Below the pieces are notes generated by a model that was not told the origin of the DNA, did not search any database, and saw only the letters and a list, made by a program, of their open reading frames with translations. Positions 851 through 22,169 of a stretch of DNA of 23,022 bases are shown here, piece after piece. Position 1 is the stretch's first letter; every line of letters begins with the position of its first letter. Source of the DNA: Candidatus Thorarchaeota archaeon (lineage in GTDB: Archaea > Asgardarchaeota > Thorarchaeia > Thorarchaeales > Thorarchaeaceae); contig JAEOUG010000156.1 of NCBI GenBank assembly GCA_016839445.1, positions 1-23,022 of the forward strand, in the 5' to 3' direction. Made by a program: the position numbers and the translations under genes.

Positions 851-2206
851 ATGCTGTCTGCAATCAGTCTGGGCATCTACGAGTTCAGGAAGTACCTGGT
901 ACTCAGCCTCATGATTTCCCTGATTGCGATACCAATCTGTGACGCAATGGTCATCCAGCGTGACAGAAACAGAAACGAGATGTATGGGGAGGCCTTCTGG
1001 ATCTACGGATTCAGTATCTACACTATGAGTGACCGAGAGCTAGCAGAGGCCCTTCCACCAGAGTGGGGCTACAATGACGGGAATCATGTCCTTCCAGAAT
1101 ACTTGGAGAATGTGAACTACGAGTATCCTGTCTTCGGCCTGATCTTCTTTGCCATAGCCACATGGCTGTATCCAGGTACCGGTGGCCTTCAACCCATGTG
1201 GCTCAACTTCCTTCTTGTTCTCGTGTTCAATCTGAATCTGGTTCTAATCGCGATTCTACTTCGGGAAAAGTTGCACAAGGCCAACTGGGCTCGTTTCTTC
1301 TTTGCCGGTTACTTCACGTATGGTCTCTTGATGTCTGCCGGCGGTGGCAAGCTTGAACCAATCGTCGATTGCCTGCTCCTGATGTCACTTGTCCTGTGGA
1401 GGGAGAATCAGAACGGGAAGGCGATGTTCACCCTCGGTCTATCGGTGCAGACGAAGCTGTACACAGCGGTTGCCTTTCCTCTTATGTTTCTGGCGAGTCC
1501 ACTCTCTTCTGTGTGGTTCATCCTCTCCCTTCTGATGACTGTGGTTCCAGTCTTCTTTGGGGCTGACTTCGGATCATTGATCTCTCATCTCTTCAATCTC
1601 TCGAGCTACAGCTCGTACATCGTCAACCCACTCTATCCTGGGCTTGCCTTTTCCACACCTGAACTTGTAGACAATGTGGTGGTTTCCACGTATCCGTGGC
1701 CTCCCGCCCTGATTCCTCTCACAATCTACGCGTTCTTTATGCTGTCCACAATCAAGACCTACATACCCGAGAGGAGAGAGTTTGAGGGCAAGTCATTCCG
1801 TATGAAGCTGCTCACCCTGAGACCATTCTACCTGTATCTCCTACCCGGGATACTCTTTGTCTTCCGCTGGGTGATGCCGTGGTATCTCTACTGGTTAGCT
1901 CCACTTGTTGTGCTATACGACCGGGATGAAAGGGCCAGGGGCTATCTACAGCAAGTCACGCTCATAGGGCTCCTCTACATGCTGGGTCTACTTGCCAACT
2001 GGCCGTACTTCTGGGCTAACCCACTTCCTCAGTTCATGGAGCACTTCCCGTATGGCTTATGGACGATAGGAGGTCTGTTCCTCTTGGTCTTGCTGACCGG
2101 AGTGGCCTTTGTCATCTGGAAATGGGTCTTCTCAAGGAGGTCACGTCTAGATGAGAAGGCTGCGGAGAAACGTGCCGCAGAGATGAGTGGAGAACTCATC
2201 ATATAG
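851..2206 (+). CDS. Multi-pass GT-C fold glycosyltransferase, GT87/DUF2029/PIG-M-like (lipid-phosphate-sugar dependent)
   Basis: 451 aa with many hydrophobic segments. Acidic N-terminal loop ending YEYPVFGLIFF, GKLEPIVDCLLL...LGLSVQTKLYTAVAFP and VMPWYLYWLAPL motifs are typical of GT87-like proteins. Confidence 0.7.
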   Translation: MLSAISLGIYEFRKYLVLSLMISLIAIPICDAMVIQRDRNRNEMYGEAFWIYGFSIYTMSDRELAEALPPEWGYNDGNHVLPEYLENVNYEYPVFGLIFFAIATWLYPGTGGLQPMWLNFLLVLVFNLNLVLIAILLREKLHKANWARFFFAGYFTYGLLMSAGGGKLEPIVDCLLLMSLVLWRENQNGKAMFTLGLSVQTKLYTAVAFPLMFLASPLSSVWFILSLLMTVVPVFFGADFGSLISHLFNLSSYSSYIVNPLYPGLAFSTPELVDNVVVSTYPWPPALIPLTIYAFFMLSTIKTYIPERREFEGKSFRMKLLTLRPFYLYLLPGILFVFRWVMPWYLYWLAPLVVLYDRDERARGYLQQVTLIGLLYMLGLLANWPYFWANPLPQFMEHFPYGLWTIGGLFLLVLLTGVAFVIWKWVFSRRSRLDEKAAEKRAAEMSGELII

Positions 2207-5168: not shown

Positions 5169-5335
5169 TGTTTAGAAGCATCCTCCAGAACTTATGTGAC
5201 GCCAGAAATCGGACGGAATGCCATCAATCATCAGACTCCGTCTTTTATCCGTTATTGAATATTTCCTTAGGACTCAATATAACCCGCTATTAGAAACCTG
5301 ATAAAATGTCCCTGAATGGACAGAATACTGCTGTT

Positions 5336-5602
5336 TCACATTCTCGAGACAATCTCGACTTCGACTTGTGCGACACCTTCCACGGAGCTGATGGCCTTCT
5401 CGATGTCGTCGGTGCCGCCCATGGACTCGTCTCTTGCGAAGTTCATCCTGAGTGCCTGAAGCCCAAAAGCAACAGGTTGCTTCTCAACGGCTCTCAGATC
5501 TGTTCCCTCCGGGATGACTGCCTTGATGTCCTCCAAGAGCTGGTCGAGGTCAATGTCAACGTCCTCTGGCATGACGCGCAGTGTCATTATCACTCTAGCC
5601 AT
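5336..5602 (-). CDS. ef1b: Archaeal elongation factor 1-beta
   Basis: MARVIMTLRVMPEDVDIDLD...PVAFGLQAL...VEGVAQVEVEIVSRM. Start moved from 5683 to ATG 5602 to fit family length (88 aa) and avoid overlap with the upstream gene. Confidence 0.95.
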   Translation of the reverse strand: MARVIMTLRVMPEDVDIDLDQLLEDIKAVIPEGTDLRAVEKQPVAFGLQALRMNFARDESMGGTDDIEKAISSVEGVAQVEVEIVSRM

Positions 5603-5625
5603 CGATGTCGTTCTCCGTATTCCGA

Positions 5626-5802
5626 TTATGGTCCCTCGAAGCCACAGTTGGGGCAGGTGTATCTGTTGGAGAATCTCCTGCACGATTCGCAGCGCCAGAT
5701 TGTGAACTCACCACAGGATGGACATCTGAACTTCACGCTGCTCTCCTGAGGTGACACTGACGCATGGCATGAAGTGCACCTTGTCGCTTTTATCGCTGCC
5801 AA
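5626..5802 (-). CDS. Double Zn-ribbon protein (DUF1610/HVO_2753-like), commonly upstream of aEF1-beta
   Basis: CTSC, FRCPSCGE, IWRCESCRR, YTCPNCGFEGP; probable TTG start at 5802 behind a GGTGA SD. Confidence 0.9.
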   Translation of the reverse strand: MAAIKATRCTSCHASVSPQESSVKFRCPSCGEFTIWRCESCRRFSNRYTCPNCGFEGP

Positions 5803-10608: not shown

Positions 10609-10718
10609 GCGTGAAGAGGCTTCTATTGCCCTTATTTCGGTACGCTTAAATGCGCCCCGTCTGTTGAAAACTCGTCAGATGGACTACCGGAGTCCATCAT
10701 CACCATTGGAGGCATTTT

Positions 10719-11051
10719 TTGTCTAGTAGAAAAGGTGGCCGCAGAGGTCAGGATACCAGTCCTGCTGAACCAGTCCGAGTGAGGACTCCCAATCCCAGAG
10801 ATGGGGAGATGTTTGGTGTCATAGTACAGATGCTCGGTTTCGACAGAGTTCGGGTCAGGTGCGAGGATGGTAACATCCGCATCGGAAGAATCCCCGGCAG
10901 GATGAAGAAGCGCGTCTGGATGAGAGTAGGAGACACCGTAATCATTGTACCTTGGGACTTCCAGAGTGAGGACAAGTGTGACGTTGTCTACAGATATCGT
11001 GGTAATGAGCTCGATTGGCTTGAGAAGAAAGGACTTCTCAAGATGTTCTAG
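10719..11051 (+). CDS. eif1a: Translation initiation factor 1A
   Basis: GEMFGVIVQMLG..VRCEDG..RIPGRMKKRVWMRVGD..PWDFQ; TTG start with GGAGG SD. Confidence 0.97.
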   Translation: MSSRKGGRRGQDTSPAEPVRVRTPNPRDGEMFGVIVQMLGFDRVRVRCEDGNIRIGRIPGRMKKRVWMRVGDTVIIVPWDFQSEDKCDVVYRYRGNELDWLEKKGLLKMF

Positions 11052-11121
11052 CGCCAATCCTTTTCTGCAAACTGACGAATACTACCAGTGCAATCCAGCA
11101 CTACGTGGGTGAGGGTCCGCC

Positions 11122-11907
11122 TTGAAGAGAGTCGATAAGGAACACGAGCGGCTCCTGTCCGAACTTGATCGTCGAAAGATGAAGCGGATTAAGGACACAG
11201 ACGAGTTCAAGGTAGTCGAGGGTGTCATCGACCCTCCGACACTCAAGTGCCTCTACAAACTACTGAATCGCGGCACGATCCAAGCTCTACACGGGGCCAT
11301 TAGCACTGGCAAAGAGGCGAATGTCTATCGAGGTGTCGATGCCGATGGGAAGTCAGTCGCTGTCAAGATCTATAGAATCTCCACAGCCGAAACCGACTAT
11401 ATGCTGGAGTACATTGTTGGCGACCCTCGGTTCAAGCGTGTTGGCCGTCGCAGCAGAGTGCTAATTCCGCAGTGGGCCATGAAGGAATTCAAGAATCTCA
11501 CACGATACCATGAAGCGGGTGTCAGGGTTCCCAAGCCCCTAGACATTGAGCGCAATGTTCTTGTCATGGAGTTTATCGGGGACCAGAAGGAAAGCTTGCC
11601 AGCTCCCCTTCTCAAGAATTCTAGAATCGAGAATCCGGTAGACGTCTTTGACGACATCATCAGCATGGTTGAGAAAGGGTACCGGGAGGCCGGTCTTGTA
11701 CACGCGGATCTTAGTGAATACAACATCCTTTGGCACAACGAGCCCGTCTTCATAGATGTCTCTCAGGGGGTGCTGAAAGCGCATCCTGCAGCCAAGAGGT
11801 ACCTTCATCGCGATATCCAAAACATAATCAACCACTTCTCAAAACTGGGAGTGGAATCCGAGGACCCTGTAGAAATAACCAGACACATCATCGGAAACGG
11901 TGAATGA
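11122..11907 (+). CDS. rio1: RIO1 family Ser/Thr kinase/ATPase
   Basis: ISTGKEANVY, VAVKIY, VLVMEFIG, LVHADLSEYNIL, FIDVSQ; TTG start. Confidence 0.96.
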   Translation: MKRVDKEHERLLSELDRRKMKRIKDTDEFKVVEGVIDPPTLKCLYKLLNRGTIQALHGAISTGKEANVYRGVDADGKSVAVKIYRISTAETDYMLEYIVGDPRFKRVGRRSRVLIPQWAMKEFKNLTRYHEAGVRVPKPLDIERNVLVMEFIGDQKESLPAPLLKNSRIENPVDVFDDIISMVEKGYREAGLVHADLSEYNILWHNEPVFIDVSQGVLKAHPAAKRYLHRDIQNIINHFSKLGVESEDPVEITRHIIGNGE

Positions 11908-12479
11908 GAAGAATGCAGTATCACGAAACAATCAAAGTCCCTTCCGAGCGAATCGGAGTAATCGTTGGACGCAACGGCCGTGTAAGGAAGAGGATAGAAG
12001 AGCTCACCAACGTCAAGATTGATGTTGACTCCACTGGCATAGTGACTATCATAAGGTCAGTGGACACAGAAGACCCCGTCTTGGCCTGGAAGGCGAGAGA
12101 CATTGTCCGTGCCATGGCAAGGGGCTTCAGTCCAAAGAATGCATTCGCTCTTGTCGATGATGACACGAGACTAGTCGTGATTTCCCTTCGAGAGTCTGTC
12201 GGCACTTCGCCTACTCAACTGAAACGTGTGGCAGGACGAATCATCGGGGAGAATGGACGCACTCGGCGCTTGATTGAGCAGATTACGGAGACCAAGCTGT
12301 CAGTCTACGGTAAGACTGTATCACTCATTGGGTCTGATCCTGGACTTGACTACGCACAGCGAGCGGTGGACATGCTAGTCAAGGGAGCTCCACATGGTGC
12401 AGTCTACTCTCAACTGGAGCGAATGCGTAGAGAGATGAACAGGCAGAGAGCTGAGCTGTGGGAGCCAACTGACCTCTGA
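11904..12479 (+). CDS. dim2: KH-domain pre-rRNA processing protein Dim2/Pno1
   Basis: Two KH GxxG loops (IVGRNG, IIGENG), ARGFSPKNA, GAPHGAVY; 4-nt overlap with rio1. Confidence 0.93.
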   Translation: MRRMQYHETIKVPSERIGVIVGRNGRVRKRIEELTNVKIDVDSTGIVTIIRSVDTEDPVLAWKARDIVRAMARGFSPKNAFALVDDDTRLVVISLRESVGTSPTQLKRVAGRIIGENGRTRRLIEQITETKLSVYGKTVSLIGSDPGLDYAQRAVDMLVKGAPHGAVYSQLERMRREMNRQRAELWEPTDL

Positions 12480-12528
12480 GTAATACGCTCACTAATAACC
12501 CCAGCAATTCACCCTATTTCTGAGTACC

Positions 12529-14040
12529 ATGGGTCAAAAGGTCGAGCGTGAGCCAGCATTCGAGAGCATCTCTGTAGCTGAGTTCTTCTACAGGAACCGG
12601 CAGATGGCAGGCTTTGGGAACAGCACACAGGCTGTCTACTCGACAGTCCGCGAACTAGTCGAGAACAGCCTAGACTCCTGCGAAGAAGCGCTGAGGTCGC
12701 CGCTTGTCGACATCACCATCAGTTCGCTTGATCCAGAAGTCTGTCATGTTTCGGTATCGGACAACGGCCTTGGAGTTCCTGTGGAATATGCACCGGAAGC
12801 GTTCACACGGGTCCTATATGGGAGTAAGTATCGTCAGCGGCAGAAGCGAGGCGCCTTCGGTCTCGGAGTGACCATGGCAGTACTCTATGGCCAAGTCACA
12901 ACAGACTTGCCAGTAGTGGTTCACACTCAGACTGAGGAAGATGGAGGAACGGAGTTCACACTTCTCATCGACGTGAAGAATAATGCACCAGTAGTTAAGG
13001 CAACTCGACGTCTGCGTCGCGGCAGTGCCGGAACAACGGTCTCTCTCAGCATCAAGGGGGACACAAAGAGAGCTAGGGAGCGGATTATCGAGTATCTCCG
13101 CCTGACTTCGGTGAGCACACCGTATGCTCGGATAAGTCTCTCCATCAATGGAGAAAAGGAGTCCTTTGGAGGAGTATCCCAGGAACTCCCGCGAAATCCG
13201 ATCGAAACAAAGCCTCATCCGAGATCGGCTGACCTTGAGCTGCTGAGAAGGCTCTCTTCAGACGCCATGTCCAGAGGCCTACGGGAGTGGCTGGTCGATT
13301 CATTTCAGAAGGTCGGTGAAAAGACAGCAGCAAGGCTGCTAGAGTTCATATCTCTTGACTCACGCCAGCCTGTGTCGTCTCTCACCAGAGAGCAACTCAC
13401 CGTGCTGGCCGGGGGACTGCGCAAGTTTGACGACTTTGAGGGTCCTGACCCCAGAAGTCTCAATCCAGTTGGGAAGGGACAATTCCTTCTCGGAGTCCAA
13501 TCGACCTTCAGTACCACAGCAACTCAATATGCTGCGCGAGTCCCATCGGAATGGGATGGGCATGCCTTCATTGTGGAGGCGGTCTTGGCCACTGGGGATG
13601 ATTTCCCATGTTCAGATCTTCCCACGGTCTTCAGATTCGCCAATAGGGTACCGCTTCTATACGATGCAAGTGAGGATGTCCTCACAAGAGCATTGAGGAA
13701 GGTGAACTGGAGCCGCTACAGTTTGAGGTCTTCTCCTCCTGCAGCAATATTCGTCAATCTTTCGTCCACGAGGGTGCCATTCAAGGCAGCCGGCAAGCAG
13801 TCGATTGACGCAGTTCCGAGTATCGAAGCTGAGGTGGTTGCACTCTACAGAGACCTAGGCCGTAAGCTCAGAAAAGTGGTGAACCGAGGCCAGAGAGCCA
13901 CCAGAGTCTCACGAAAGAAGAAGGAATTCTCCAAGTCTTTCAGACTCCTTGCCGAATCCAGTGCCAACCTTGCCGAATGTGAGGTGCCTGAGTATGAGGG
14001 TATGATTCAGAATCTATTCGAGGTGGATGAAGATGTATGA
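12529..14040 (+). CDS. top6B: DNA topoisomerase VI subunit B
   Basis: SVAEFF, RELVENSLDS, SDNGLG, VLYGSKY..RGAFGLG (GHKL); H2TH region; RFANRVPLL; VPFKAAGKQ. Confidence 0.96.
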   Translation: MGQKVEREPAFESISVAEFFYRNRQMAGFGNSTQAVYSTVRELVENSLDSCEEALRSPLVDITISSLDPEVCHVSVSDNGLGVPVEYAPEAFTRVLYGSKYRQRQKRGAFGLGVTMAVLYGQVTTDLPVVVHTQTEEDGGTEFTLLIDVKNNAPVVKATRRLRRGSAGTTVSLSIKGDTKRARERIIEYLRLTSVSTPYARISLSINGEKESFGGVSQELPRNPIETKPHPRSADLELLRRLSSDAMSRGLREWLVDSFQKVGEKTAARLLEFISLDSRQPVSSLTREQLTVLAGGLRKFDDFEGPDPRSLNPVGKGQFLLGVQSTFSTTATQYAARVPSEWDGHAFIVEAVLATGDDFPCSDLPTVFRFANRVPLLYDASEDVLTRALRKVNWSRYSLRSSPPAAIFVNLSSTRVPFKAAGKQSIDAVPSIEAEVVALYRDLGRKLRKVVNRGQRATRVSRKKKEFSKSFRLLAESSANLAECEVPEYEGMIQNLFEVDEDV

Positions 14041-15085
14041 GTCAGAGGATGCACTCGCAGTTCTGAGGAAGATGGGCCGGTCTGTAGTTGATTCAATTCA
14101 GAACCAGCAGTTCCCCGCTATTGACATTCCTGACCGCAAGACCAACAACATAGTGTACGACGAGGCATCTGGCAGATTCACCCTGGGTCCCTCGACATCA
14201 AGAAGGGATTCGAGCAACACCAAGCACGTCAGGAGCTTTGCGCAGCTGATGTGGGTAGCGGACTTCGCTAAGCGTCTGCTTGAGTCCTCACGTACGAGCT
14301 CTCTTCGCGATCTCTACTACTCTAGCGAGGCCTTCGGCGTCAAGTTCGCGGATCAATCGGAATCCGACAGAATCGTAACGGACCTTGAATGCTACACAGG
14401 CCACCCTCGGGAGTCGTTCGGCATCTTCCCTGAGGAGCACTCCTCCATCTATGGCGAGATAGTCCTGAGGTACACAGTACCAGGATACGAAGGCCGCGAG
14501 ATTGATCTCACAATAAGCCCGGATGGTCTCCCTGTCGGACCCGCAATCGTATCCGCTGAGCCAGTCCGAAGCGAGGCTCGACTAGTACTAGCTGTTGAGT
14601 CCGGAGGTATGTTCTCCCGCCTCATCGAATCAAGAGCATGGAAACGATTCGGTGCAGTTCTTGTCCAGCTCGGAGGTCAACCACCAAGGGCAACCAGAAG
14701 ACTACTTCGAATCCTTCGAAGCAGACTGGATCTTCCCGTGTACATATTCACAGATGGCGATCCTTGGGGTATGCACATTGCCAAGGTCATTATCAGTGGT
14801 AGCGCCAATTCGGCCCATATATCCGACCTGGCAGTTCCTGATGCCAAGTGGATTGGAGTCACTCCAGATGACATAGAGAACTACTCCCTCCCGAGTGAGC
14901 CTCTGACCAATGCAGATCTCAAACGTCTGGACGACCTTACGAGAGATGTAAGGTATGATTCGTCCAAGTGGGCTGGGTACATCGATGGCTTTCGCCGACT
15001 CAGGGTCAAGGCTGAGCAGCAGGCGTTTAGCAGGTACGGCATGGACTATGTTGTAGACAGATACCTTCAGGACAAGTTGGTCTAG
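14033..15085 (+). CDS. top6A: DNA topoisomerase VI subunit A
   Basis: SLRDLYY (catalytic Tyr), TOPRIM LAVESGGMF and FTDGDPWG, KAEQQA. Start is ATG 14033 (or 14027), overlapping top6B. Confidence 0.96.
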   Translation: MYESEDALAVLRKMGRSVVDSIQNQQFPAIDIPDRKTNNIVYDEASGRFTLGPSTSRRDSSNTKHVRSFAQLMWVADFAKRLLESSRTSSLRDLYYSSEAFGVKFADQSESDRIVTDLECYTGHPRESFGIFPEEHSSIYGEIVLRYTVPGYEGREIDLTISPDGLPVGPAIVSAEPVRSEARLVLAVESGGMFSRLIESRAWKRFGAVLVQLGGQPPRATRRLLRILRSRLDLPVYIFTDGDPWGMHIAKVIISGSANSAHISDLAVPDAKWIGVTPDDIENYSLPSEPLTNADLKRLDDLTRDVRYDSSKWAGYIDGFRRLRVKAEQQAFSRYGMDYVVDRYLQDKLV

Positions 15086-16119
15086 AGCCAGCCAGTGCCA
15101 AAGGGATAGAAGAAGATGAAGAACATCACGGCACCATAGACAAGCAGAGCCTGCAGAAGCAAGAGAATCCTGACGTTCTTCTTCTCAGTCATGTTCCTCG
15201 AGAAGTGGGGCAATAGCCAGTAGATCGTATAGGGGCCCACTACTTGCAGAGTGCCATCTTCCCTTGGAGTGGCGAACTTGACCCAGTCTTGCCCTGTGCG
15301 TCTGACATGTAGTCGATACCATATGTAGAGAAGGAAGTTGATGCCAAAGGGAATGTACATGACGATTGCCAGTCTGTCCATGTTCCCGATTATCAGAGCT
15401 GCCGCGATGGCAGCTCCCATGGGCAGTCTTCCGACGTCTCCCGGTAGGACCTTGGCGGGAAACCTGTTGAAGATAATGAAGCCAATCGCTGCACCAAGCA
15501 GGGCGGCTGCGACAACGGCAGCCTGCATCTCTTTCGGTCCGATTGTGTGGCCATTGATGAAATGAGACATCAGGACATAGACCACAAGCCCTGAGGAATT
15601 AATGATGCTAAGACCAGATTCCAGCCCGTTCATCCCTCCATACATGTTTGTGGCATCTATGATGAAGGTCATCATCAGCGGCACAATCAGGAGGGCATAC
15701 CAGATCCCGAAGTTGACAGTTCCTATGATTGGAAGGGTCATTGTCGGAGTCCCGACACTCATGACCATCATGGGAATAGTAGAAACGAGAGGCAGTGCGA
15801 TCTTCGTTCGAGTCGAGAAGTCCAGATGGTCGTCCAAGAGGCCTATCATTCCCGCCATGAGGATTGAAACGAGGGCCGCGAGGATTCCTACACTCTCAAC
15901 GGAAAGGCTCTGGAAGGTCGTCAGACCTAGCACAATCAGAAGACCGAAGACCAATCCAAAGAGAAGGATGAAGCCTCCACCCTTGGGCACCTCTGGTCGG
16001 TCCGTCTTGTGAACATCGATTCCTGTAGAGCCCCTCTCTCTCAGGACCTTGATTGCGCTGGGTAGGAAGAGGAGCACGGTCAAGAGGGATACCACAAGTG
16101 CCGCCTGAATCTCGAGCAT
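15082..16119 (-). CDS. aglH: UDP-GlcNAc:dolichyl-phosphate GlcNAc-1-phosphate transferase (AglH/ALG7/DPAGT1; MraY/GPT family)
   Basis: About 10 TM; GIDVHKTDRPEVPKGGG, IGLLDD, NMYGGMNGLE, FNRFPAKVLPGDVG. ATG 16119 preferred over TTG 16137. Confidence 0.85.
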   Translation of the reverse strand: MLEIQAALVVSLLTVLLFLPSAIKVLRERGSTGIDVHKTDRPEVPKGGGFILLFGLVFGLLIVLGLTTFQSLSVESVGILAALVSILMAGMIGLLDDHLDFSTRTKIALPLVSTIPMMVMSVGTPTMTLPIIGTVNFGIWYALLIVPLMMTFIIDATNMYGGMNGLESGLSIINSSGLVVYVLMSHFINGHTIGPKEMQAAVVAAALLGAAIGFIIFNRFPAKVLPGDVGRLPMGAAIAAALIIGNMDRLAIVMYIPFGINFLLYIWYRLHVRRTGQDWVKFATPREDGTLQVVGPYTIYWLLPHFSRNMTEKKNVRILLLLQALLVYGAVMFFIFFYPFGTGWL

Positions 16120-16296
16120 TTCACCAACCTCGTGCAACCTCGAGGCTGTCCCCGTTTTGACCTTTTCGGGAAGCTGTGCATGCTTTCAACGTCCGAAATC
16201 TATTTTAGCGAACCCGAAGCTCGAGCGCTCACTCGCTGACCAGTGGATAGTACGTCTACTGGTAGTGAAGTTCCAATCAGCAAACGGTGAAACGGA

Positions 16297-19254
16297 TTGA
16301 GCCTGTTGAAGACAAAGATAGGAACCCTATTCCTGCTCGCGCTGTTCATCACAAGCGCGTTGGCATCTGTTACCCCTATCTCACAAGTAGATGACACGGA
16401 GAGCTTGGCTCAGAGCATAGACGTAGGATCGCTCGTGGCAGAGTCCTCCCTAGATTTCGCCATACCTCATGTTGACGCACACTACGGCTTCTCTGACGGT
16501 ATCATCGATCCGATGGAGTACGCTCACAGTTTCACCGACGAGCAGACTGGAATCACGGCATATGCAGAGCACAATGGAACTCATCTGTATCTGGGGCTTT
16601 CGGCGCCAATCGATGGCTGGATTGGGATTGCCTGGCAGAACTACACAGGGACGTTCACGTCAGCAGGCCTGAACAACAGCGATGTTCTCGTTGGCTATGT
16701 ACCAGGGTCACCAAATGGCAACTACTGGAGGGTCAGACCAACAGATGCTGTGACTGTGCACTACAAGCTCTACCTGCGAAACGGCACTCTGTTTCAGGAG
16801 AGCGACTATCCTGACATCTCGTCAACAGTGGCAGTTGAAGACCTCGGCGTGCTCCCCATGTACAGGGACATGATTCTGGGTATGCGTATTGGCGAGGTGC
16901 GTCACTTCGTGATTCCTGCCGCCCAAGGTTATACCGAAAGAACTGACACTCTCTACGGGGAGGACCTAGTCTACGAGATCAAGTTGACAAGGATCCTCCG
17001 ACAGAGTGTGCAGAGAACGGCCAATCCTGCAGATGGAACATACATCACTTACAGCGACGAACATGGAACAAGCACATTCCAGCACTTGGCCGATGCAGAC
17101 CAGTCAAGGATTGTTGCAGCAGATGGCACTGACAATGGCACACTCATGCAGATTGAATACGAGATTCTCCTGAATTCCACGGATGCCGACGACATTCCTC
17201 TCTTCAACAGCAGTCTAGTGTCATTCCCATTCATATTCATGATGGGGTTGACAGATGAGCTAAATGCCGTACCCCTTGCTCACACCTATTGGGCGGCACC
17301 TGTTGAGGTATCACTCGTACCTAACGCGCCTCCTCTTCTCACCGTTGTAAGTCCCGAGGCGGGATCCACTGTCGAATGGGTGATGAAGCTAGCACTGAAT
17401 GCTAGTGATGACTACATCAGGGAAGCGTCCTATAGGATTGATAGTGGAGACTGGGCATCTCTGCGTTACGACTTCGTGACAACCTACTGGCAGGCGAATG
17501 TAGACTCCGCTGAGTATGACGAGGGTCTCCATACAATCTGGTTCAACGCCACTGACTCGTCAAACGTGACCTCAGTGACCTATGTGAACATCACCGTTTA
17601 CAGACCCTTCCTTCCTCTGCTTGGAATGCGACTAGATGTTGTCCGAGCCCTCACTCCCACAGAGCACTTCGGAACGGAGATCCAGGATGCATTCATTGTC
17701 ACTAACAATGGGTCCGCTCCCATTGGGTCGATTGATATCTACCTCCCGATAGAGTGGGCCAAGAACTTCCTCTCGCTTGAACCATCGGGTGATTCTGAGA
17801 TTCGGATCGTACGCCTTGAGGATGCTGACGGCATGATGCGGTGGAGAGTGTACTTCCCCGAGCCAGTCGGCTTCCGAGAGTCCTACACATTCGAAACTAC
17901 AACCTACATGCACTCCCTGTTCTGGCTGACCGACGAGGAGTCATTCGAGTACCGTATTGAGTACATCAAGTATCCCGTCGTACCCTATGTCCTGAGGAAG
18001 GCAGTATTCGCCTTTGACGAAGACAAACTGGTTCCCTTGGAGGAATCTCCTTCCTCGACTGAGTACAACCTCAACCCGTTGACCATGACCGACTTCAGCG
18101 TACGCCTGAGGCTCTTCACAAAGAACGTTGTGGCGGATCGCGAAACGAGAATAGTCCTGGATGCGTGGGGGTGGCTCGGTTACACAGAGAAGGTTACGTT
18201 GGACAACACAGGCGGCGGCTCTCTCATGAGCTTCAAGTTCACGATACCTGCTTATGCCACCGCCGTGAAGATCTATGATGAGGTGGGTATTCTTGCCCTC
18301 TCCCTGCGAAGTCTGAGCGGCACCTGGAATGAGTCTAGGCAGATTACTGTGTCCCTGTCCGGCGACAGGTTTGGGACCAACGGATTCGAGCCAGGCTTCA
18401 AGTACACGTTCTGGATCACTTATGTTGTCTTGGCCAGTCAGCACCAGACTCCAGCACCCGGTGGGGCAGAACTGACTCCACCCATGGGTCTTCTCGGAGA
18501 CATCTTGGTACGGACCCACACAGTGGATGTTGTGCTGACTGCGACGGTTGGTCTGTCGAGTTCAAGCCCCGGGTATAGGATGTTCTACGGGGTATTTGAT
18601 AGGACATTGAGATACACTGCATACAACTCAACTCTCCGAAATCCCATGGAGATCAACGTAGTCTACACGACGACCATTGGTGCTGCAGCTCGGCCTGCAA
18701 TCTTCACCCTCATTATTGGGGTCATCGCTTTGGCATATGTTGCCTATCGGAAGGTGGATCTACCTGAAGAGATGACTGGTCCTTCTGGTGAGGGTTTCGA
18801 TACGACGCAGGTGAGGCAGACTGGCGCTCCTCCCGAGCTCCTGCGAGACTTTGCCCAAGTCTACTCCCGAAAGACAGCTTTGAACATGGACCTGGAGAAG
18901 CTTGAGGCAGCACGGCGAAGAGGGAAGGTCACAAAGAGGGAGTACATGCTTCGCGAGAAGGATCTCAAAGAGCAGTTGGATGAGATTGATTCCAAGCTCC
19001 CGGGTCTCAAGACCGAGATGATCAAGAACGGGCCTAGGTACCGAGACATTGTTGCCCAACTTGAGCTCCAGGATGAGCGTATCGAGGGTGCGAAAGCTGG
19101 TCTTCGCCAACTTCTCCTCCGGAAGAAGAAACAGCGTATCAGCAGGGTTGCCTTCGAGAAATCAAGGCAGGACTATCTCAAGACCATTCAGAAGGCAACA
19201 AGTGCAACTGACAGGATTCTTCTGTCAGTCCAAGAAGAAGCAGGGGACATCTAG
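16297..19254 (+). CDS. Ribophorin I (OST1)-like type I membrane protein with N-terminal DOMON-like domain, inserted FKBP domain and Ig-like domain
   Basis: Signal peptide aa 1-23; DOMON-like aa ~66-136 and ~248-341; FKBP aa ~146-233; Ig-like aa ~343-435; ribophorin-I-like aa ~445-795 (RIVLDAWGWLGYTEKVTLDNTG, TIPAYATAVKIYDEVG, PGFKYTFWITY); TM aa 801-817; helical cytoplasmic tail. TTG start with GGTGA SD. Confidence 0.78.
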   Translation: MSLLKTKIGTLFLLALFITSALASVTPISQVDDTESLAQSIDVGSLVAESSLDFAIPHVDAHYGFSDGIIDPMEYAHSFTDEQTGITAYAEHNGTHLYLGLSAPIDGWIGIAWQNYTGTFTSAGLNNSDVLVGYVPGSPNGNYWRVRPTDAVTVHYKLYLRNGTLFQESDYPDISSTVAVEDLGVLPMYRDMILGMRIGEVRHFVIPAAQGYTERTDTLYGEDLVYEIKLTRILRQSVQRTANPADGTYITYSDEHGTSTFQHLADADQSRIVAADGTDNGTLMQIEYEILLNSTDADDIPLFNSSLVSFPFIFMMGLTDELNAVPLAHTYWAAPVEVSLVPNAPPLLTVVSPEAGSTVEWVMKLALNASDDYIREASYRIDSGDWASLRYDFVTTYWQANVDSAEYDEGLHTIWFNATDSSNVTSVTYVNITVYRPFLPLLGMRLDVVRALTPTEHFGTEIQDAFIVTNNGSAPIGSIDIYLPIEWAKNFLSLEPSGDSEIRIVRLEDADGMMRWRVYFPEPVGFRESYTFETTTYMHSLFWLTDEESFEYRIEYIKYPVVPYVLRKAVFAFDEDKLVPLEESPSSTEYNLNPLTMTDFSVRLRLFTKNVVADRETRIVLDAWGWLGYTEKVTLDNTGGGSLMSFKFTIPAYATAVKIYDEVGILALSLRSLSGTWNESRQITVSLSGDRFGTNGFEPGFKYTFWITYVVLASQHQTPAPGGAELTPPMGLLGDILVRTHTVDVVLTATVGLSSSSPGYRMFYGVFDRTLRYTAYNSTLRNPMEINVVYTTTIGAAARPAIFTLIIGVIALAYVAYRKVDLPEEMTGPSGEGFDTTQVRQTGAPPELLRDFAQVYSRKTALNMDLEKLEAARRRGKVTKREYMLREKDLKEQLDEIDSKLPGLKTEMIKNGPRYRDIVAQLELQDERIEGAKAGLRQLLLRKKKQRISRVAFEKSRQDYLKTIQKATSATDRILLSVQEEAGDI

Positions 19255-19356
19255 AGCAAGACAACCCTGCCCTTCTTGCCTTCGCCTCCAAATGCCAACT
19301 CAGCAACTCTTATCAAAGGACACGCGCACCCACTATGCCCTTTTGGGGGTACTGCA

Positions 19357-20208
19357 ATGAATACAACAGAATCCTACGACCGTCAGTCCATTCGAGCGAG
19401 AGAGTTCATTGAGCCAGAGTCTCGTGCCTTAGAGATGTATCAGTACCTCACTGGCTCTCCCAAGGTTCAGTCATACCTCCGCACCGCAAACAGAATGGCA
19501 GTGTCGCGACTCGGATACACAGACCATGGACCTGTCCACGCAGAGGTTGCGACATGGAATGCTCTGAAAGCATTTGACATACTAACCCAGACGTTCAATC
19601 CCAATGTCGTCGCTGAGGGAGTTGGCAATCTAGATGATGCCAAGCTTGTTGTGTTGGCTGCGACGTACCTTCATGATATTGGAATGGTCGTCCATCGAAA
19701 CGAGCACTATCAGGCAGCGATTCAGCTAGCTGCTCCTATCTTGGAATCGAAGCTCGAAGACATGTACGAAGACCCCGCAAAAGCCACAGATATCCTGTCT
19801 TTCATACTGCACGGCATCTACGCCCATGATGATGATACACAATGCCTGACGCTCGAGTCTGGAATCACGAAGATTGGTGATGGGTGTGACATGACGAAGG
19901 GTAGGACAATAGTACCGTTCCAGCAGGGCAAGGTGGACATCCACTCAGTCAGTGCTCTAGCAATCAACGAGGTCCATCTAGAAAAGGCCAAGACCAAGCC
20001 ACTTCGCATTACCGTGGCGATGGACAATCCAGCTGGCGTCTTCCAGGTTGAGGCTGTACTGGAGAAGAAGATCTCCACTTCGGGTCTGCGTGATCACGTC
20101 GACATCGATGTTCTCGTCAACGGCGACAGGCTTGTTCTCTCTCATGTGAAGCGGCTCTTCAGAGTCCAGATGAGCGAGTCCCCAGAGTCACTGAGTATGA
20201 AGGACTAG
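19357..20208 (+). CDS. HD-superfamily metal-dependent phosphohydrolase (COG3294-like)
   Basis: GYTDHGPVH, YLHDIG, IYAHD, DGCDMTKGR, DIHSVSALAI; ATG 19357 with GGGGGT SD. Confidence 0.88.
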   Translation: MNTTESYDRQSIRAREFIEPESRALEMYQYLTGSPKVQSYLRTANRMAVSRLGYTDHGPVHAEVATWNALKAFDILTQTFNPNVVAEGVGNLDDAKLVVLAATYLHDIGMVVHRNEHYQAAIQLAAPILESKLEDMYEDPAKATDILSFILHGIYAHDDDTQCLTLESGITKIGDGCDMTKGRTIVPFQQGKVDIHSVSALAINEVHLEKAKTKPLRITVAMDNPAGVFQVEAVLEKKISTSGLRDHVDIDVLVNGDRLVLSHVKRLFRVQMSESPESLSMKD

Positions 20209-20219
20209 CTCAAGTGGAA

Positions 20220-20324
20220 TGGTAGCCCCGCCAGGACTCGAACCTGGGTCTGAGAGGCCAAAACCCTCAATGCTTGACCGGTCTGCGCGAGGCTCATGTG
20301 GGCCTCGCTCTACACCACGGGGCT
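20220..20324 (-). tRNA. tRNA-Gln(UUG) with encoded CCA and a 29-nt D-loop intron
   Basis: Spliced 76-mer AGCCCCG TG GTGTAG^CGGTCAAGCAT T GAGGG TT-TTG-GC CTCTC AGAC CCAGG TTCGAGT CCTGG CGGGGCT A CCA. All four stems form, and the A1-U72 pair is typical of archaeal tRNA-Gln. Confidence 0.92.
20281..20309 (-). other. Non-canonical tRNA intron between positions 15 and 16
   Basis: AGCGAGGCCCACATGAGCCTCGCGCAGAC with a 7-bp stem GCGAGGC/GCCTCGC. Three-nt bulges AG^A and AC^C flank the helix GTGT/GCAG, giving a relaxed BHB. Confidence 0.82.
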
Positions 20325-20333
20325 GTTGCTCTG

Positions 20334-20648
20334 CTACTGAGATAGACCAAATGGAACTCCCTTTTCGATTATGTCCTGACTGATTCTCTCCTTCCACCGC
20401 TCAAGGAAAGCGGTTTCCTCTCTTCGCTGCTTGGCCTCCATTCGAAGGTCATCGGGAAGCATGCACGCGATACCATCAATGACAGGATACCATCTTCCAC
20501 ACTTCGGGCAGGTGATGAGTGCCTCATCAATCTCCTCCACCTCTCCATCTTTGGCATCAATCATATGGGCGTCAAAGATCTCAAGATGTAGCTTGCTCCG
20601 ACAGTCACTGGCAGGGCAAGCCAAGATGTCCATCAGCCAGGCCTTCAT
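20334..20648 (-). CDS. trm112: Trm112 family methyltransferase activator
   Basis: MKAWLMDILACP..C...LITCPKCGRWYPVIDGIACMLPDDLR; ATG 20648; upstream TTTTTAA at 20690-20696 on the minus strand. Confidence 0.92.
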   Translation of the reverse strand: MKAWLMDILACPASDCRSKLHLEIFDAHMIDAKDGEVEEIDEALITCPKCGRWYPVIDGIACMLPDDLRMEAKQRREETAFLERWKERISQDIIEKGVPFGLSQ

Positions 20649-20774
20649 CTTCTGATTCCACCGGTCTCTGCTGGCTTCGCGAGATGTTGTTAAAAAGTAT
20701 TCTAGACGATGCACCTTTCCGAAACCTATTTTGCCGACGGGCATGCGAGAAGGCCAAGTCCGGAGTGGTTAGCC

Positions 20775-22169
20775 GTGTCATTCAGACATCCGTGGATTCC
20801 CACTGACAAAGAGACCGAGAAGGCCATGTTAGAGGCCATCGGCAAGAAGAATATCGACGACCTCTTCTCTGACATCCCAGAGGAGTTTCGCCTACAAGAG
20901 GACCTGCATCTTCCTGACGCACATACCGAATTCGAGGTCACACAGAGGATTCTGGAGCTGGCGGGCAAGAACAAGCCCGCTAATGATGGGCGCATCTTTC
21001 TAGGCTCGGGAGCAGGCCTTCACTATATCCCCTCAGCTGTGCCAGCCCTAGCTGGCCGGTCGGAATTTGTCACATCATATACAAGTTACCAAGCAGAAGT
21101 TAGCCAAGGGATGCTCCAGACTCTCTTCGAATATCAGAGTCTTCTGGCTGAGCTTCTTCTGGTCGATGTTGTGAACTCCTCTATGTATGACATGGCCACG
21201 GGAGTCGCTGAGGCAGCGCGGATGGCTGTCCGGGTGAAGAAGAAGAAGGACAAGTTCCTTGTTCCAGGCACAATCGACCCTGAGCATTACAGCGTCATTC
21301 ACACCTATACCGAACCCGCAGACATCACAGTTGAGCGAGTGAGCTATCATCCTGAAACGGGGTTGATGGATCTTGATGACTTGGAAGGAAAGATGGACGG
21401 CGTCGCCGGTGTCTACATAGAGAACCCTAGTCACCTAGGCTTCATCGAATCCCAGGTCGAGGAAATCGGCAAAATCGCACACAGCAATGACGCATTACTT
21501 GTAGCTGGAGTTGACGTTCTCTCTCTTGGAGTCATTAGACCACCCGGAGACTATGAGGCCGACATTGTAGTTGCAGAGGGGCAGCACCTAGGCTCGCCAG
21601 TCAGCTATGGGGGACCATTGCTCGGAGTGTTTGGCTGCAGAAACGACCGCAAGCTCATCTATCAGCTTCCGGGTCGGTTGGTTGGGATGACTAGGACTCA
21701 GCAGGAGCCCTTTGAGACTGGCTATGTCCTTACACTCAGCCCCCGGGAGCAGCATATCCGTCGTGAGAAGGCGACGAGCAACATCTGCTCAAACCAGGCT
21801 CTGGCGGCAGTGACTGCAGCTGTCTATATGTCGCTACTAGGACCAGCTGGCATTCGGCAGCTTGGCGAAACAATCGCACTGAACTCGAATTATGTTGCTG
21901 CCCGGCTAAACGAGATAGAAGGAGTCCGCGCTCCTGCAATTGGCACATCGATTTGGAAGGAGTTCGTTGTTCAGTTCGAGAGCATGTCCGCCAAGGATGT
22001 TCACTTGGCACTCCTTCGTCGGGGTCTGCACGGGGGCAAGATTCTCACGAACGATTTTCCCGGCCTCGGAGAATCAATGCTGTTTAGTGTCACCGAGATC
22101 CACACGAAGCGGAACATGGACCAACTGGTCGAAGCAGTCAGAGATGTGGTAGAGGGAGGTGCCCGATAA
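20775..22169 (+). CDS. gcvPA: Glycine dehydrogenase (decarboxylating) subunit 1
   Basis: HPWIP...MLEAIG, EFVTSYTSYQAEVSQGMLQTLFEYQS, YGGPLLG, REQHIRREKATSNICSNQAL; GTG 20775 preferred. Confidence 0.96.
   Translation: MSFRHPWIPTDKETEKAMLEAIGKKNIDDLFSDIPEEFRLQEDLHLPDAHTEFEVTQRILELAGKNKPANDGRIFLGSGAGLHYIPSAVPALAGRSEFVTSYTSYQAEVSQGMLQTLFEYQSLLAELLLVDVVNSSMYDMATGVAEAARMAVRVKKKKDKFLVPGTIDPEHYSVIHTYTEPADITVERVSYHPETGLMDLDDLEGKMDGVAGVYIENPSHLGFIESQVEEIGKIAHSNDALLVAGVDVLSLGVIRPPGDYEADIVVAEGQHLGSPVSYGGPLLGVFGCRNDRKLIYQLPGRLVGMTRTQQEPFETGYVLTLSPREQHIRREKATSNICSNQALAAVTAAVYMSLLGPAGIRQLGETIALNSNYVAARLNEIEGVRAPAIGTSIWKEFVVQFESMSAKDVHLALLRRGLHGGKILTNDFPGLGESMLFSVTEIHTKRNMDQLVEAVRDVVEGGAR

Follow-up and report, generated by a model that had tools for sequence, protein, structure and literature searches.

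Asgard archaea are already known to possess OST1, the homolog of oligosaccharyltransferase (OST) subunit 1 of eukaryotes (ribophorin I or RPN1 in humans, Ost1 in yeast), and the cytosolic domains of both the OST1 protein of 'Ca. Prometheoarchaeum syntrophicum' MK-D1 and human RPN1 pull down ribosomes (PMC11417166). On the other side of the membrane, non-covalent docking places human FKBP11 next to OST-A at the SEC61 translocon (PDB 9YGY; PMC12804085). Here we describe a 23,022-nucleotide stretch of DNA from a Candidatus Thorarchaeota archaeon (contig JAEOUG010000156.1; referred to below as the window), in which the gene at positions 16297-19254 of the forward strand encodes an OST1/ribophorin I ortholog of 985 aa with an unusual N-terminal head. 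This head consists of a DOMON β-sandwich, an FKBP domain inserted into it and an Ig-like domain. An earlier note, made from the letters of the window alone, knew of no description of this architecture; we found no published description of it in the literature searched, with supplementary tables and subscription journals lying outside that search, and the claim held within these bounds. The sequences themselves are public under the partial name of an FKBP-type isomerase.

Asgard OST1 counts as a "eukaryotic signature" protein and is used to argue that the translocon of the endoplasmic reticulum (ER) was inherited from archaea. The variant described here presents the archaeal OST/translocon itself as a platform for accessory functions, and the function added, by placing an FKBP next to the OST, resembles in kind the non-covalent accessory found recently in human cells. 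It bears on the folding of exported proteins outside the archaeal cell, where there is no ATP; to our knowledge, little experimental work has been devoted to this process. The protein is the single-copy OST1 of a Thorarchaeota-type Asgard archaeon, and we consider it rather probable that its head serves as a chaperone or isomerase for nascent exported proteins at the OST/translocon.

The C-terminal 540 residues are a full-length OST1

The gene is a single frame that begins with a TTG codon and runs through 985 codons with no internal stop, and the order of domains read from it in the earlier note holds, for every domain, to within a few residues. Its C-terminal 540 residues constitute a complete OST1, with an extracytoplasmic core of two β-sandwiches (aa ~443-793; 17623-18675), a single transmembrane helix (aa 794-817; 18676-18747) and a cytosolic four-helix bundle (aa ~844-982; 18826-19242), all encoded on the forward strand. 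The AlphaFold2 model of the full-length protein has a mean pLDDT of 73.2, reaches values of about 80-90 over aa 445-795, and possesses four long helices at aa 846-982. The membrane-spanning segment is a helix in the model as well and aligns with that of canonical OST1 proteins; in the sequence it reads as a hydrophobic stretch followed by Y-R-K.

When this model was searched with Foldseek, the best eight matches were all human or yeast RPN1/Ost1 chains, with E values from 8.7e-25 to 9.8e-14 and TMt values of 0.44-0.60: in this order, 8b6l_O (8.7e-25), 8pn9_E, 6s7o_E, 6s7t_E (TMt 0.60), 8agb_E, 7oci_A, 6ezn_A, and 6c26_1 (9.8e-14). The next class, composed of integrins and adhesins, followed at a TMt of about 0.12. 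A profile built from 31 orthologs was aligned by hhalign to one of 16 canonical Asgard OST1 proteins over 524 columns (probability 100%, E 1.1e-65), its positions 446-988 covering positions 39-580 of the 581 in the canonical profile. The canonical profile in turn matched human RPN1 (2.4e-49), the ribosome-binding domain of MK-D1 OST1 (PDB 8WHN; 1.3e-42) and yeast Ost1 (1.4e-28) among the PDB entries. The profile and fold evidence together make the identity of the core as ribophorin I/OST1 firm and bear out the assignment in the earlier note. That note had also considered S-layer or aminopeptidase-type sandwiches for aa 445-795; these are ruled out, RPN1/Ost1 fitting far better (TMt 0.44-0.60 versus ~0.12).

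The four-helix tail matches the MK-D1 domain directly (8whn_A; E 1.3e-5 for this protein and 5.3e-6 for the family profile) and shows the strongest conservation of the whole protein, with dense invariant columns in the ortholog alignment. By homology it is predicted to be of the ribosome-binding type, ribosome binding having been seen for the MK-D1 and human domains. A search with aa 440-985 against 1.84 billion representative sequences returned 296 proteins at E<=1e-3, most of them 550-620 aa long and aligned end to end; 46 distant representatives were scanned, and 28 carried Ribophorin_I (27 above cutoff), three were long and FKBP-bearing, and 15 had no match or belonged to another family. 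Some distant relatives (P0231, P0204, P0209, P0245) measure 665-703 aa, exceeding the canonical length by 60-100 aa; OST1 may carry further small additions specific to single lineages.

Family models were less telling. Pfam recognized Ribophorin_I (PF04597) in eight of the 31 orthologs, next to FKBP_C in 31, Big_7 in 14 and DOMON in five, and the scan of this single protein gave no Ribophorin_I match at E<=1, a result that speaks against the assignment. A PF04597 search of the whole genome found no match anywhere, but the controls were likewise silent and the search is hence uninformative. Searched against the PDB, the family profile matched 8WHN and FKBPs and missed RPN1, so that the connection to RPN1 needs the canonical-OST1 profile as an intermediate.

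The 607-aa OST1 of MK-D1 (PMC11417166) is homologous to the thorarchaeal protein over the whole core, the transmembrane helix and the four-helix tail, and the two proteins are alike in having one copy per genome; a type I topology with a signal peptide, as in MK-D1 OST1, is predicted for the protein studied here. They differ at the N-terminus, where the thorarchaeal protein possesses about 420 residues, the DOMON(FKBP)-Ig head, that are lacking in MK-D1 OST1 and in the other Asgard OST1 proteins listed (~580-640 aa). Eukaryotic RPN1 and yeast Ost1 (8B6L chain O, 6S7O chain E, 6S7T chain E, 6EZN chain A) share the order of lumenal sandwiches and transmembrane helix, with the cytosolic helical bundle present in RPN1, at a sequence identity of 10-14%; an extension by FKBP, DOMON or Ig domains is absent from eukaryotic RPN1, and the eukaryotic protein faces the ER lumen whereas the thorarchaeal protein is predicted to face the cell exterior.

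The sequence reads as that of a type I membrane protein with a predicted cleavable signal peptide, given a hydrophobic N-terminus with an A-x-A motif, one transmembrane segment and basic residues behind it. The predicted signal peptide (aa 1-23; 16297-16365, forward strand) comprises a basic n-region, a hydrophobic core and A-L-A before the putative cleavage site. In the model, a helix spans aa 4-20, pLDDT stays below 50 over aa 1-52, and the segment that follows the predicted signal peptide, up to about aa 50, is a low-confidence linker. The 985-aa protein is devoid of cysteine, and its ectodomain is acidic (48 K+R versus 98 D+E in 769 residues). It contains 14 N-x-S/T sequons, seven of which are kept in 31/31 orthologs, and the OST1 protein is itself probably heavily N-glycosylated.

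Integrity and occurrence of the fusion

We surveyed 400 genomes of the Asgard phylum for the two parts of the protein. The core was matched in 342 of them, nearly always in one copy per genome, and the OST1 frames outside the window's order measured ~580-640 aa among the matches listed. Within the window's family, the head was matched in 81 of 85 genomes; the sister family is represented by one genome, which also matched (36% identity, 1034-aa frame). Frames of 985-1034 aa are found in most of the matching family genomes and in the sister family. Outside these two families, the head search yielded weak single-domain matches and nothing more. These data show that the window's order added an N-terminal ectodomain head to OST1. 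The head is limited to one order; it is hence no ancestral eukaryote-like trait, and it bears on a convergent logic and not on the ancestry of ER quality control. In three genomes, the head and the core were 58 and 61% (G353), 53 and 54% (G396), and 36 and 31% (G311) identical to those of the window's protein. As judged from these sequence comparisons, the order-specific ectodomain is as conserved as the core and under purifying selection.

A word-index search recovered 211 homologs at E<=1e-3, far beyond what chance would give. The 120 that were listed are 52-86% identical to the query, derive from many contigs and measure nearly all 940-996 aa; their NCBI names are "FKBP-type peptidyl-prolyl cis-trans isomerase" or "hypothetical", and a precomputed Ribophorin_I match exists for 17 of these 120. 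Sixty named loci come from independent assemblies, almost all labelled Candidatus Thorarchaeota. A few orthologs come from records that bear the names Pirellulales bacterium, Deltaproteobacteria bacterium, Hermodarchaeota or Sifarchaeia (L052, L056; P0129, P0058); where the label is bacterial, the contig is short and seems to be Thorarchaeota DNA that was mis-binned.

Contigs from two independent studies, covering 17226-18229 and 16292-17670, cross the junction between head and core with 0 differences; stretches of the gene that independent contigs do not cover carry no weight in this comparison. An assembly chimera, a danger the earlier note had pointed out, or a mis-called gene is refuted by these junction contigs, the 60 loci and the family-wide fused frames, and we give it practically no credence. 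By that reading, two separate genes, one for an FKBP/DOMON protein and one for OST1, would have been wrongly joined: although the architecture is unusual and some database entries are shorter (P0136, 608 aa; P0139, 565 aa), these entries start in the middle of a domain and look like truncated calls, and the fused frames in most of the 81 matching genomes (of 85 in the family) and in the sister family, together with the junction contigs, speak against it. A metatranscriptome contig of 229 nt falls inside the head; its value as a sign of transcription is tempered, as it could stem from DNA carried over into the library.

The ectodomain head and its possible function

Modelled alone (aa 40-445), the head reached a pLDDT of 86.2 and a pTM of 0.78, and it hence appears to be a compact unit. 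Its FKBP domain (aa ~142-238; 16720-17010, as are all parts of the head on the forward strand) was recognized by Pfam as FKBP_C at aa 146-230 (E 5.3e-9; 36.7 bits versus a cutoff of 21.1) and by its fold, with TMt values of 0.77-0.79 and 31-34% identity to FKBP13/FKBP2 in Foldseek and VIA-align. In VIA-align, head-model residues ~103-199 gave Z 11-12 (11.6 at an rmsd of 1.9-2.0 over 92 residues). The ER-lumenal FKBP13/FKBP2 (PDB 2PBC, 4NNR) is the closest solved FKBP by both sequence (E 5.5e-4 for this protein, 2e-5 for the family profile) and fold. An NCBIfam scan of the protein returned a sub-cutoff BamJ match on the FKBP region and nothing else.

The DOMON sandwich is split by the FKBP domain into a first half (aa ~51-141; 16447-16719), with the invariant residues H92, W108 and W113, and a second half (aa ~239-344; 17011-17328), with the invariant residues H263, M315 and W332. 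VIA-align placed the DOMON fold at aa ~51-344 (head-model residues ~12-305), a span that includes the FKBP insert, and the FKBP domain is thus nested in a loop of the DOMON domain. The highest Z scores were obtained with the gamma subunits of ethylbenzene dehydrogenase (2ivf_C; 16.2, 167 residues aligned) and Nxr (7b04_C; 15.1), followed by the DBH DOMON (4zel_B; 13.8), the PDH and CDH cytochrome domains (12.6 and 12.3) and CBM9 (12.5). The head has the same β-sandwich as these members of the DOMON superfamily (2IVF_C, 7B04_C, 4ZEL, 1D7C, and CBM9 1I82), with 140-173 aligned residues and 10-17% identity. Pfam found DOMON in five of the 31 orthologs (best E 6e-5) and had no such match in this protein itself. 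Foldseek on the head returned FKBPs and generic Ig stacks and no DOMON, which emerged by VIA-align; ESM Atlas, queried with aa 45-345, gave a single weak DOMON lead whose score of 0.75 is below the meaningful level; and a DOMON family search of the genome found no match anywhere, the controls also being silent. Among the papers listed in a literature search, none described a DOMON domain that hosts an inserted FKBP.

The Ig-like domain (aa ~345-437; 17329-17607; by structure aa ~344-437), of the Big_7/E-set type, matched Big_7 at aa 346-414 with an E value of 1.3e-3, which is below the cutoff in this protein; Big_7 matched in 14/31 orthologs, and head-model residues ~305-398 gave VIA-align Z scores of 11-13. 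All three domain calls of the earlier note for the head have thus stood: the FKBP through Pfam above cutoff, the FKBP fold and FKBP_C in 31/31 orthologs, the DOMON-like domain through Z scores of 12.3-16.2 and the five Pfam matches, and the Ig-like domain through structure and Big_7.

In a few genomes of the family, the head also exists as an independent membrane-tethered ectodomain. Such a head-only paralog of 586 aa (L017:2830-4590; contig C125 of genome G337) possesses a signal peptide, a DOMON with nested FKBP (FKBP_C, 6.5e-10), Ig-like domains, a Ser/Thr-rich linker and a C-terminal transmembrane anchor; another one is located at G318:C23:20710-21858. The paralog is 34-39% identical to the OST1 head and appears, by our reading, to be without equivalents of Q167, H263 and M315. 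A search for stand-alone heads among shorter proteins gave 14 matches, all apparent fragments of the OST1-fusion family.

We propose that the core of the protein would sit beside the catalytic AglB/STT3 next to the Sec channel, as in eukaryotes, and that its tail may help to dock translating ribosomes. With the core placed in this way, the head would be held outside the membrane at the exit of the chain, on the outer face where unfolded, newly glycosylated chains would emerge. There, the FKBP domain would most likely act on nascent exported proteins as a chaperone, a prolyl isomerase or both; since the space outside the membrane is without ATP, such help would be ATP-independent. The DOMON and Ig-like domains could serve as a rigid platform and possibly provide a ligand-binding surface for a glycan or haem. 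Because the head is attached covalently, it offers a simple, testable handle on its activity and on the ligand of its DOMON domain.

For the bacterial side, PrsA, FkpA and SurA are extracytoplasmic peptidyl-prolyl isomerase (PPIase) chaperones that work without ATP where exported proteins leave Sec. They are free or lipid-anchored and stand outside glycosylation subunits, and any homology to the thorarchaeal head extends at most to the FKBP fold (FkpA). As proposed in the earlier note, a prolyl isomerase in the head might act on nascent chains at the glycosylation site. Four PPIase-family genes were found in the genome, namely the FKBP studied here, a 267-aa FKBP, a cyclophilin and a parvulin, and by sequence reading this one alone has a signal peptide.

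The proline pocket of FKBP12 comprises Y26, F36, D37, F46, V55, I56, W59, Y82 and F99; we mapped these positions through the FKBP2 alignment and counted them over the 31 orthologs. The equivalents of Y26 and Y82 are kept as Tyr and that of I56 as Leu, the F36 position is hydrophobic, and the F99 equivalent is Tyr in 31/31; Y156, Y189, Y212 and Y226 of the domain are invariant. A number of points weigh against an isomerase at the OST. The D37 equivalent, an Asp in FKBP2, is Gln in 31/31 orthologs, that of W59 is Tyr in 31/31, and that of F46 is Thr here and variable among the orthologs. FKBP13, a free soluble domain, has the canonical pocket Asp and Trp at the positions of the invariant Gln and Tyr. 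Isomerase activity may hence be weak or absent. Furthermore, the ligand site of FKBP11 is buried by CCDC134, and its authors conclude that it is an adaptor and not an isomerase (PMC12804085). The full-length model, with a pTM of 0.40, does not fix the placement of the head against the core, and we infer the association of this protein with AglB and with ribosomes by homology alone.

Several of these points would suit the same OST1 with an FKBP domain that is a non-catalytic adaptor or scaffold for a fixed partner, for example AglB, an S-layer protein or a further factor of the translocon or envelope. The invariant Gln in place of Asp, the variable Phe46 site and the adaptor role ascribed to FKBP11 at the human OST-A translocon are in line with it, the pTM of 0.78 marks the head as a rigid unit of three domains, and invariant pocket residues are equally suited to a conserved partner interface. 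The aromatic proline-site residues Y156, Y189, Y212 and Y226 are strictly kept, however, and a domain that is the only one of the genome's PPIase families predicted to be extracellular fits a general folding role. We regard the adaptor as rather unlikely.

Alternatively, the DOMON domain may be the functional centre, binding a glycan in the manner of CBM9 or a b-type haem, so that the head would serve glycan recognition or quality control, or a redox task, with the FKBP domain as an accessory. DOMON cytochromes ligate haem via His and Met, and H92, H263 and M315, invariant in 31/31 orthologs, are of these residue types and thus candidate ligands only. In structure, the domain comes closest to haem-b DOMON subunits (Z 16.2 and 15.1), with the DBH DOMON and CBM9, which binds sugar, coming next, and Pfam DOMON matches occur in 5/31 orthologs. 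A common fold does not prove a common ligand, however; the head-only paralog of G337 appears to have no equivalents of H263 and M315, and the presence of the FKBP domain in 31/31 orthologs, under strong constraint, speaks against its being an accessory. A DOMON-centred head is thus quite unlikely in our estimate, and a chaperone or isomerase for nascent exported proteins is the role that we prefer.

Such a role invites comparison with FKBP11. FKBP11 has, and the thorarchaeal protein is predicted to have, an FKBP on the non-cytosolic side beside the OST in combination with a cytosolic ribosome-contacting element, a basic one in FKBP11 (PMC12804085), and the two FKBP domains match with a Z score of 11.0 (9ygy_A). 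FKBP11 is a separate single-pass protein whose recruitment depends on the substrate (PMC12804085), while the thorarchaeal FKBP belongs to the OST1 chain itself, inserted into a DOMON domain. The thorarchaeal protein is not of the FKBP11 type, which stands alone and combines an FKBP in the lumen with a basic ribosome-binding helix at its C-terminus. The two arrangements were probably reached independently and are alike in a possible mode of action, not in family. The earlier note had stated that ER prolyl isomerases are separate proteins; this is correct for FKBP11 and has to be qualified in that FKBP11 docks beside OST-A (PMC12804085).

Going one step further, one may tentatively view the head as a folding and quality-control station hard-wired into the N-glycosylation machine, with an FKBP foldase and a ligand-binding DOMON domain, either a lectin-like reader of the new glycan or a haem site, directly above the Sec exit and the AglB active site, a possibility that we hold to be doubtful. 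If true, glycosylation and assisted folding of exported proteins would be coupled in one polypeptide, and prokaryotes would have arrived on their own at a counterpart of the ER arrangement with FKBP11 and malectin on the OST. Malectin docks on the OST in the ER.

Genomic setting of the gene

The genome (2.9 Mb, 89.8% complete) was searched for a second OST1 and none was found, which makes this copy its sole OST1. It contains one STT3/AglB, a frame of 927 aa on a contig other than that of OST1. A search of the genome for OST3/6 yielded a single match of 32.5 bits to a thioredoxin-like stretch of a 149-aa frame, and the model used also matches bacteria.

Divergently upstream of OST1, on the reverse strand (15082-16137), lies a GT4 gene of the Alg7/AglH-like, dolichyl-phosphate GlcNAc-1-P transferase type (Pfam Glycos_transf_4, E 1.5e-29), whose best PDB match is human DPAGT1/Alg7 (3.2e-14), ahead of MraY (3.1e-10). 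The two genes are separated by a common intergenic region of 159 bp (16138-16296) that presumably contains their promoters. The GT4 gene holds this position in 48 of 60 related loci, the other 12 having <=111 nt of upstream DNA, and the pairing survives in the sister family and where the topo VI genes are absent. The adjacency lies, however, inside a larger syntenic block and is therefore modest evidence of a functional coupling.

These data bear on the idea that the protein stands outside an OST complex, as a ribophorin-like scaffold with a ribosome-binding tail that would be an AglB-independent surface or folding factor. Archaeal AglB is generally viewed as an enzyme of one subunit, AglB is encoded on a different contig, and the genome search gave no clear OST3/6; these points would agree with it. 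Yet the homology with eukaryotic OST subunit 1 runs from end to end, transmembrane helix and tail included, the core occurs in 342/400 Asgard genomes, nearly always as a single copy, and the gene is conserved beside the Alg7-like gene for the first step of the N-glycan pathway. In addition, AlphaFold2 models of a Sec61/OST/TRAP assembly of MK-D1 superpose on the human translocon (PMC11417166). We consider a protein outside the OST very unlikely, and a single-copy OST1 with a folding-related head remains our preferred interpretation.

The syntenic block (11122-22169 of the window, and loci L020-L079) is kept as a whole across the family and comprises the genes for a RIO kinase, a KH protein, topo VI subunits B and A, the GT4 protein, OST1, an HD-type protein, Trm112 and GcvP. 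Five loci (L035, L037, L038, L039, L079) have no topo VI genes between KH and GT4. The HD-type gene (19276-20208, forward strand; 310 aa) begins 22 nt past the OST1 stop codon and may be co-transcribed with OST1; its HD-domain match is weak (E 4.4e-4, below cutoff), and it found no match in the PDB or NCBIfam. It follows OST1 in 58/60 loci, the remaining two ending without downstream DNA. Three further frames of the window, of 451 aa (851-2206, forward strand), 147 aa (5306-5749, forward strand) and 141 aa (10632-11057, reverse strand), have no Pfam match at E<=1e-3. The neighbours are otherwise ordinary archaeal housekeeping genes (CDC48, FEN1, aIF2-beta, NMD3, RIO1 and topo VI).

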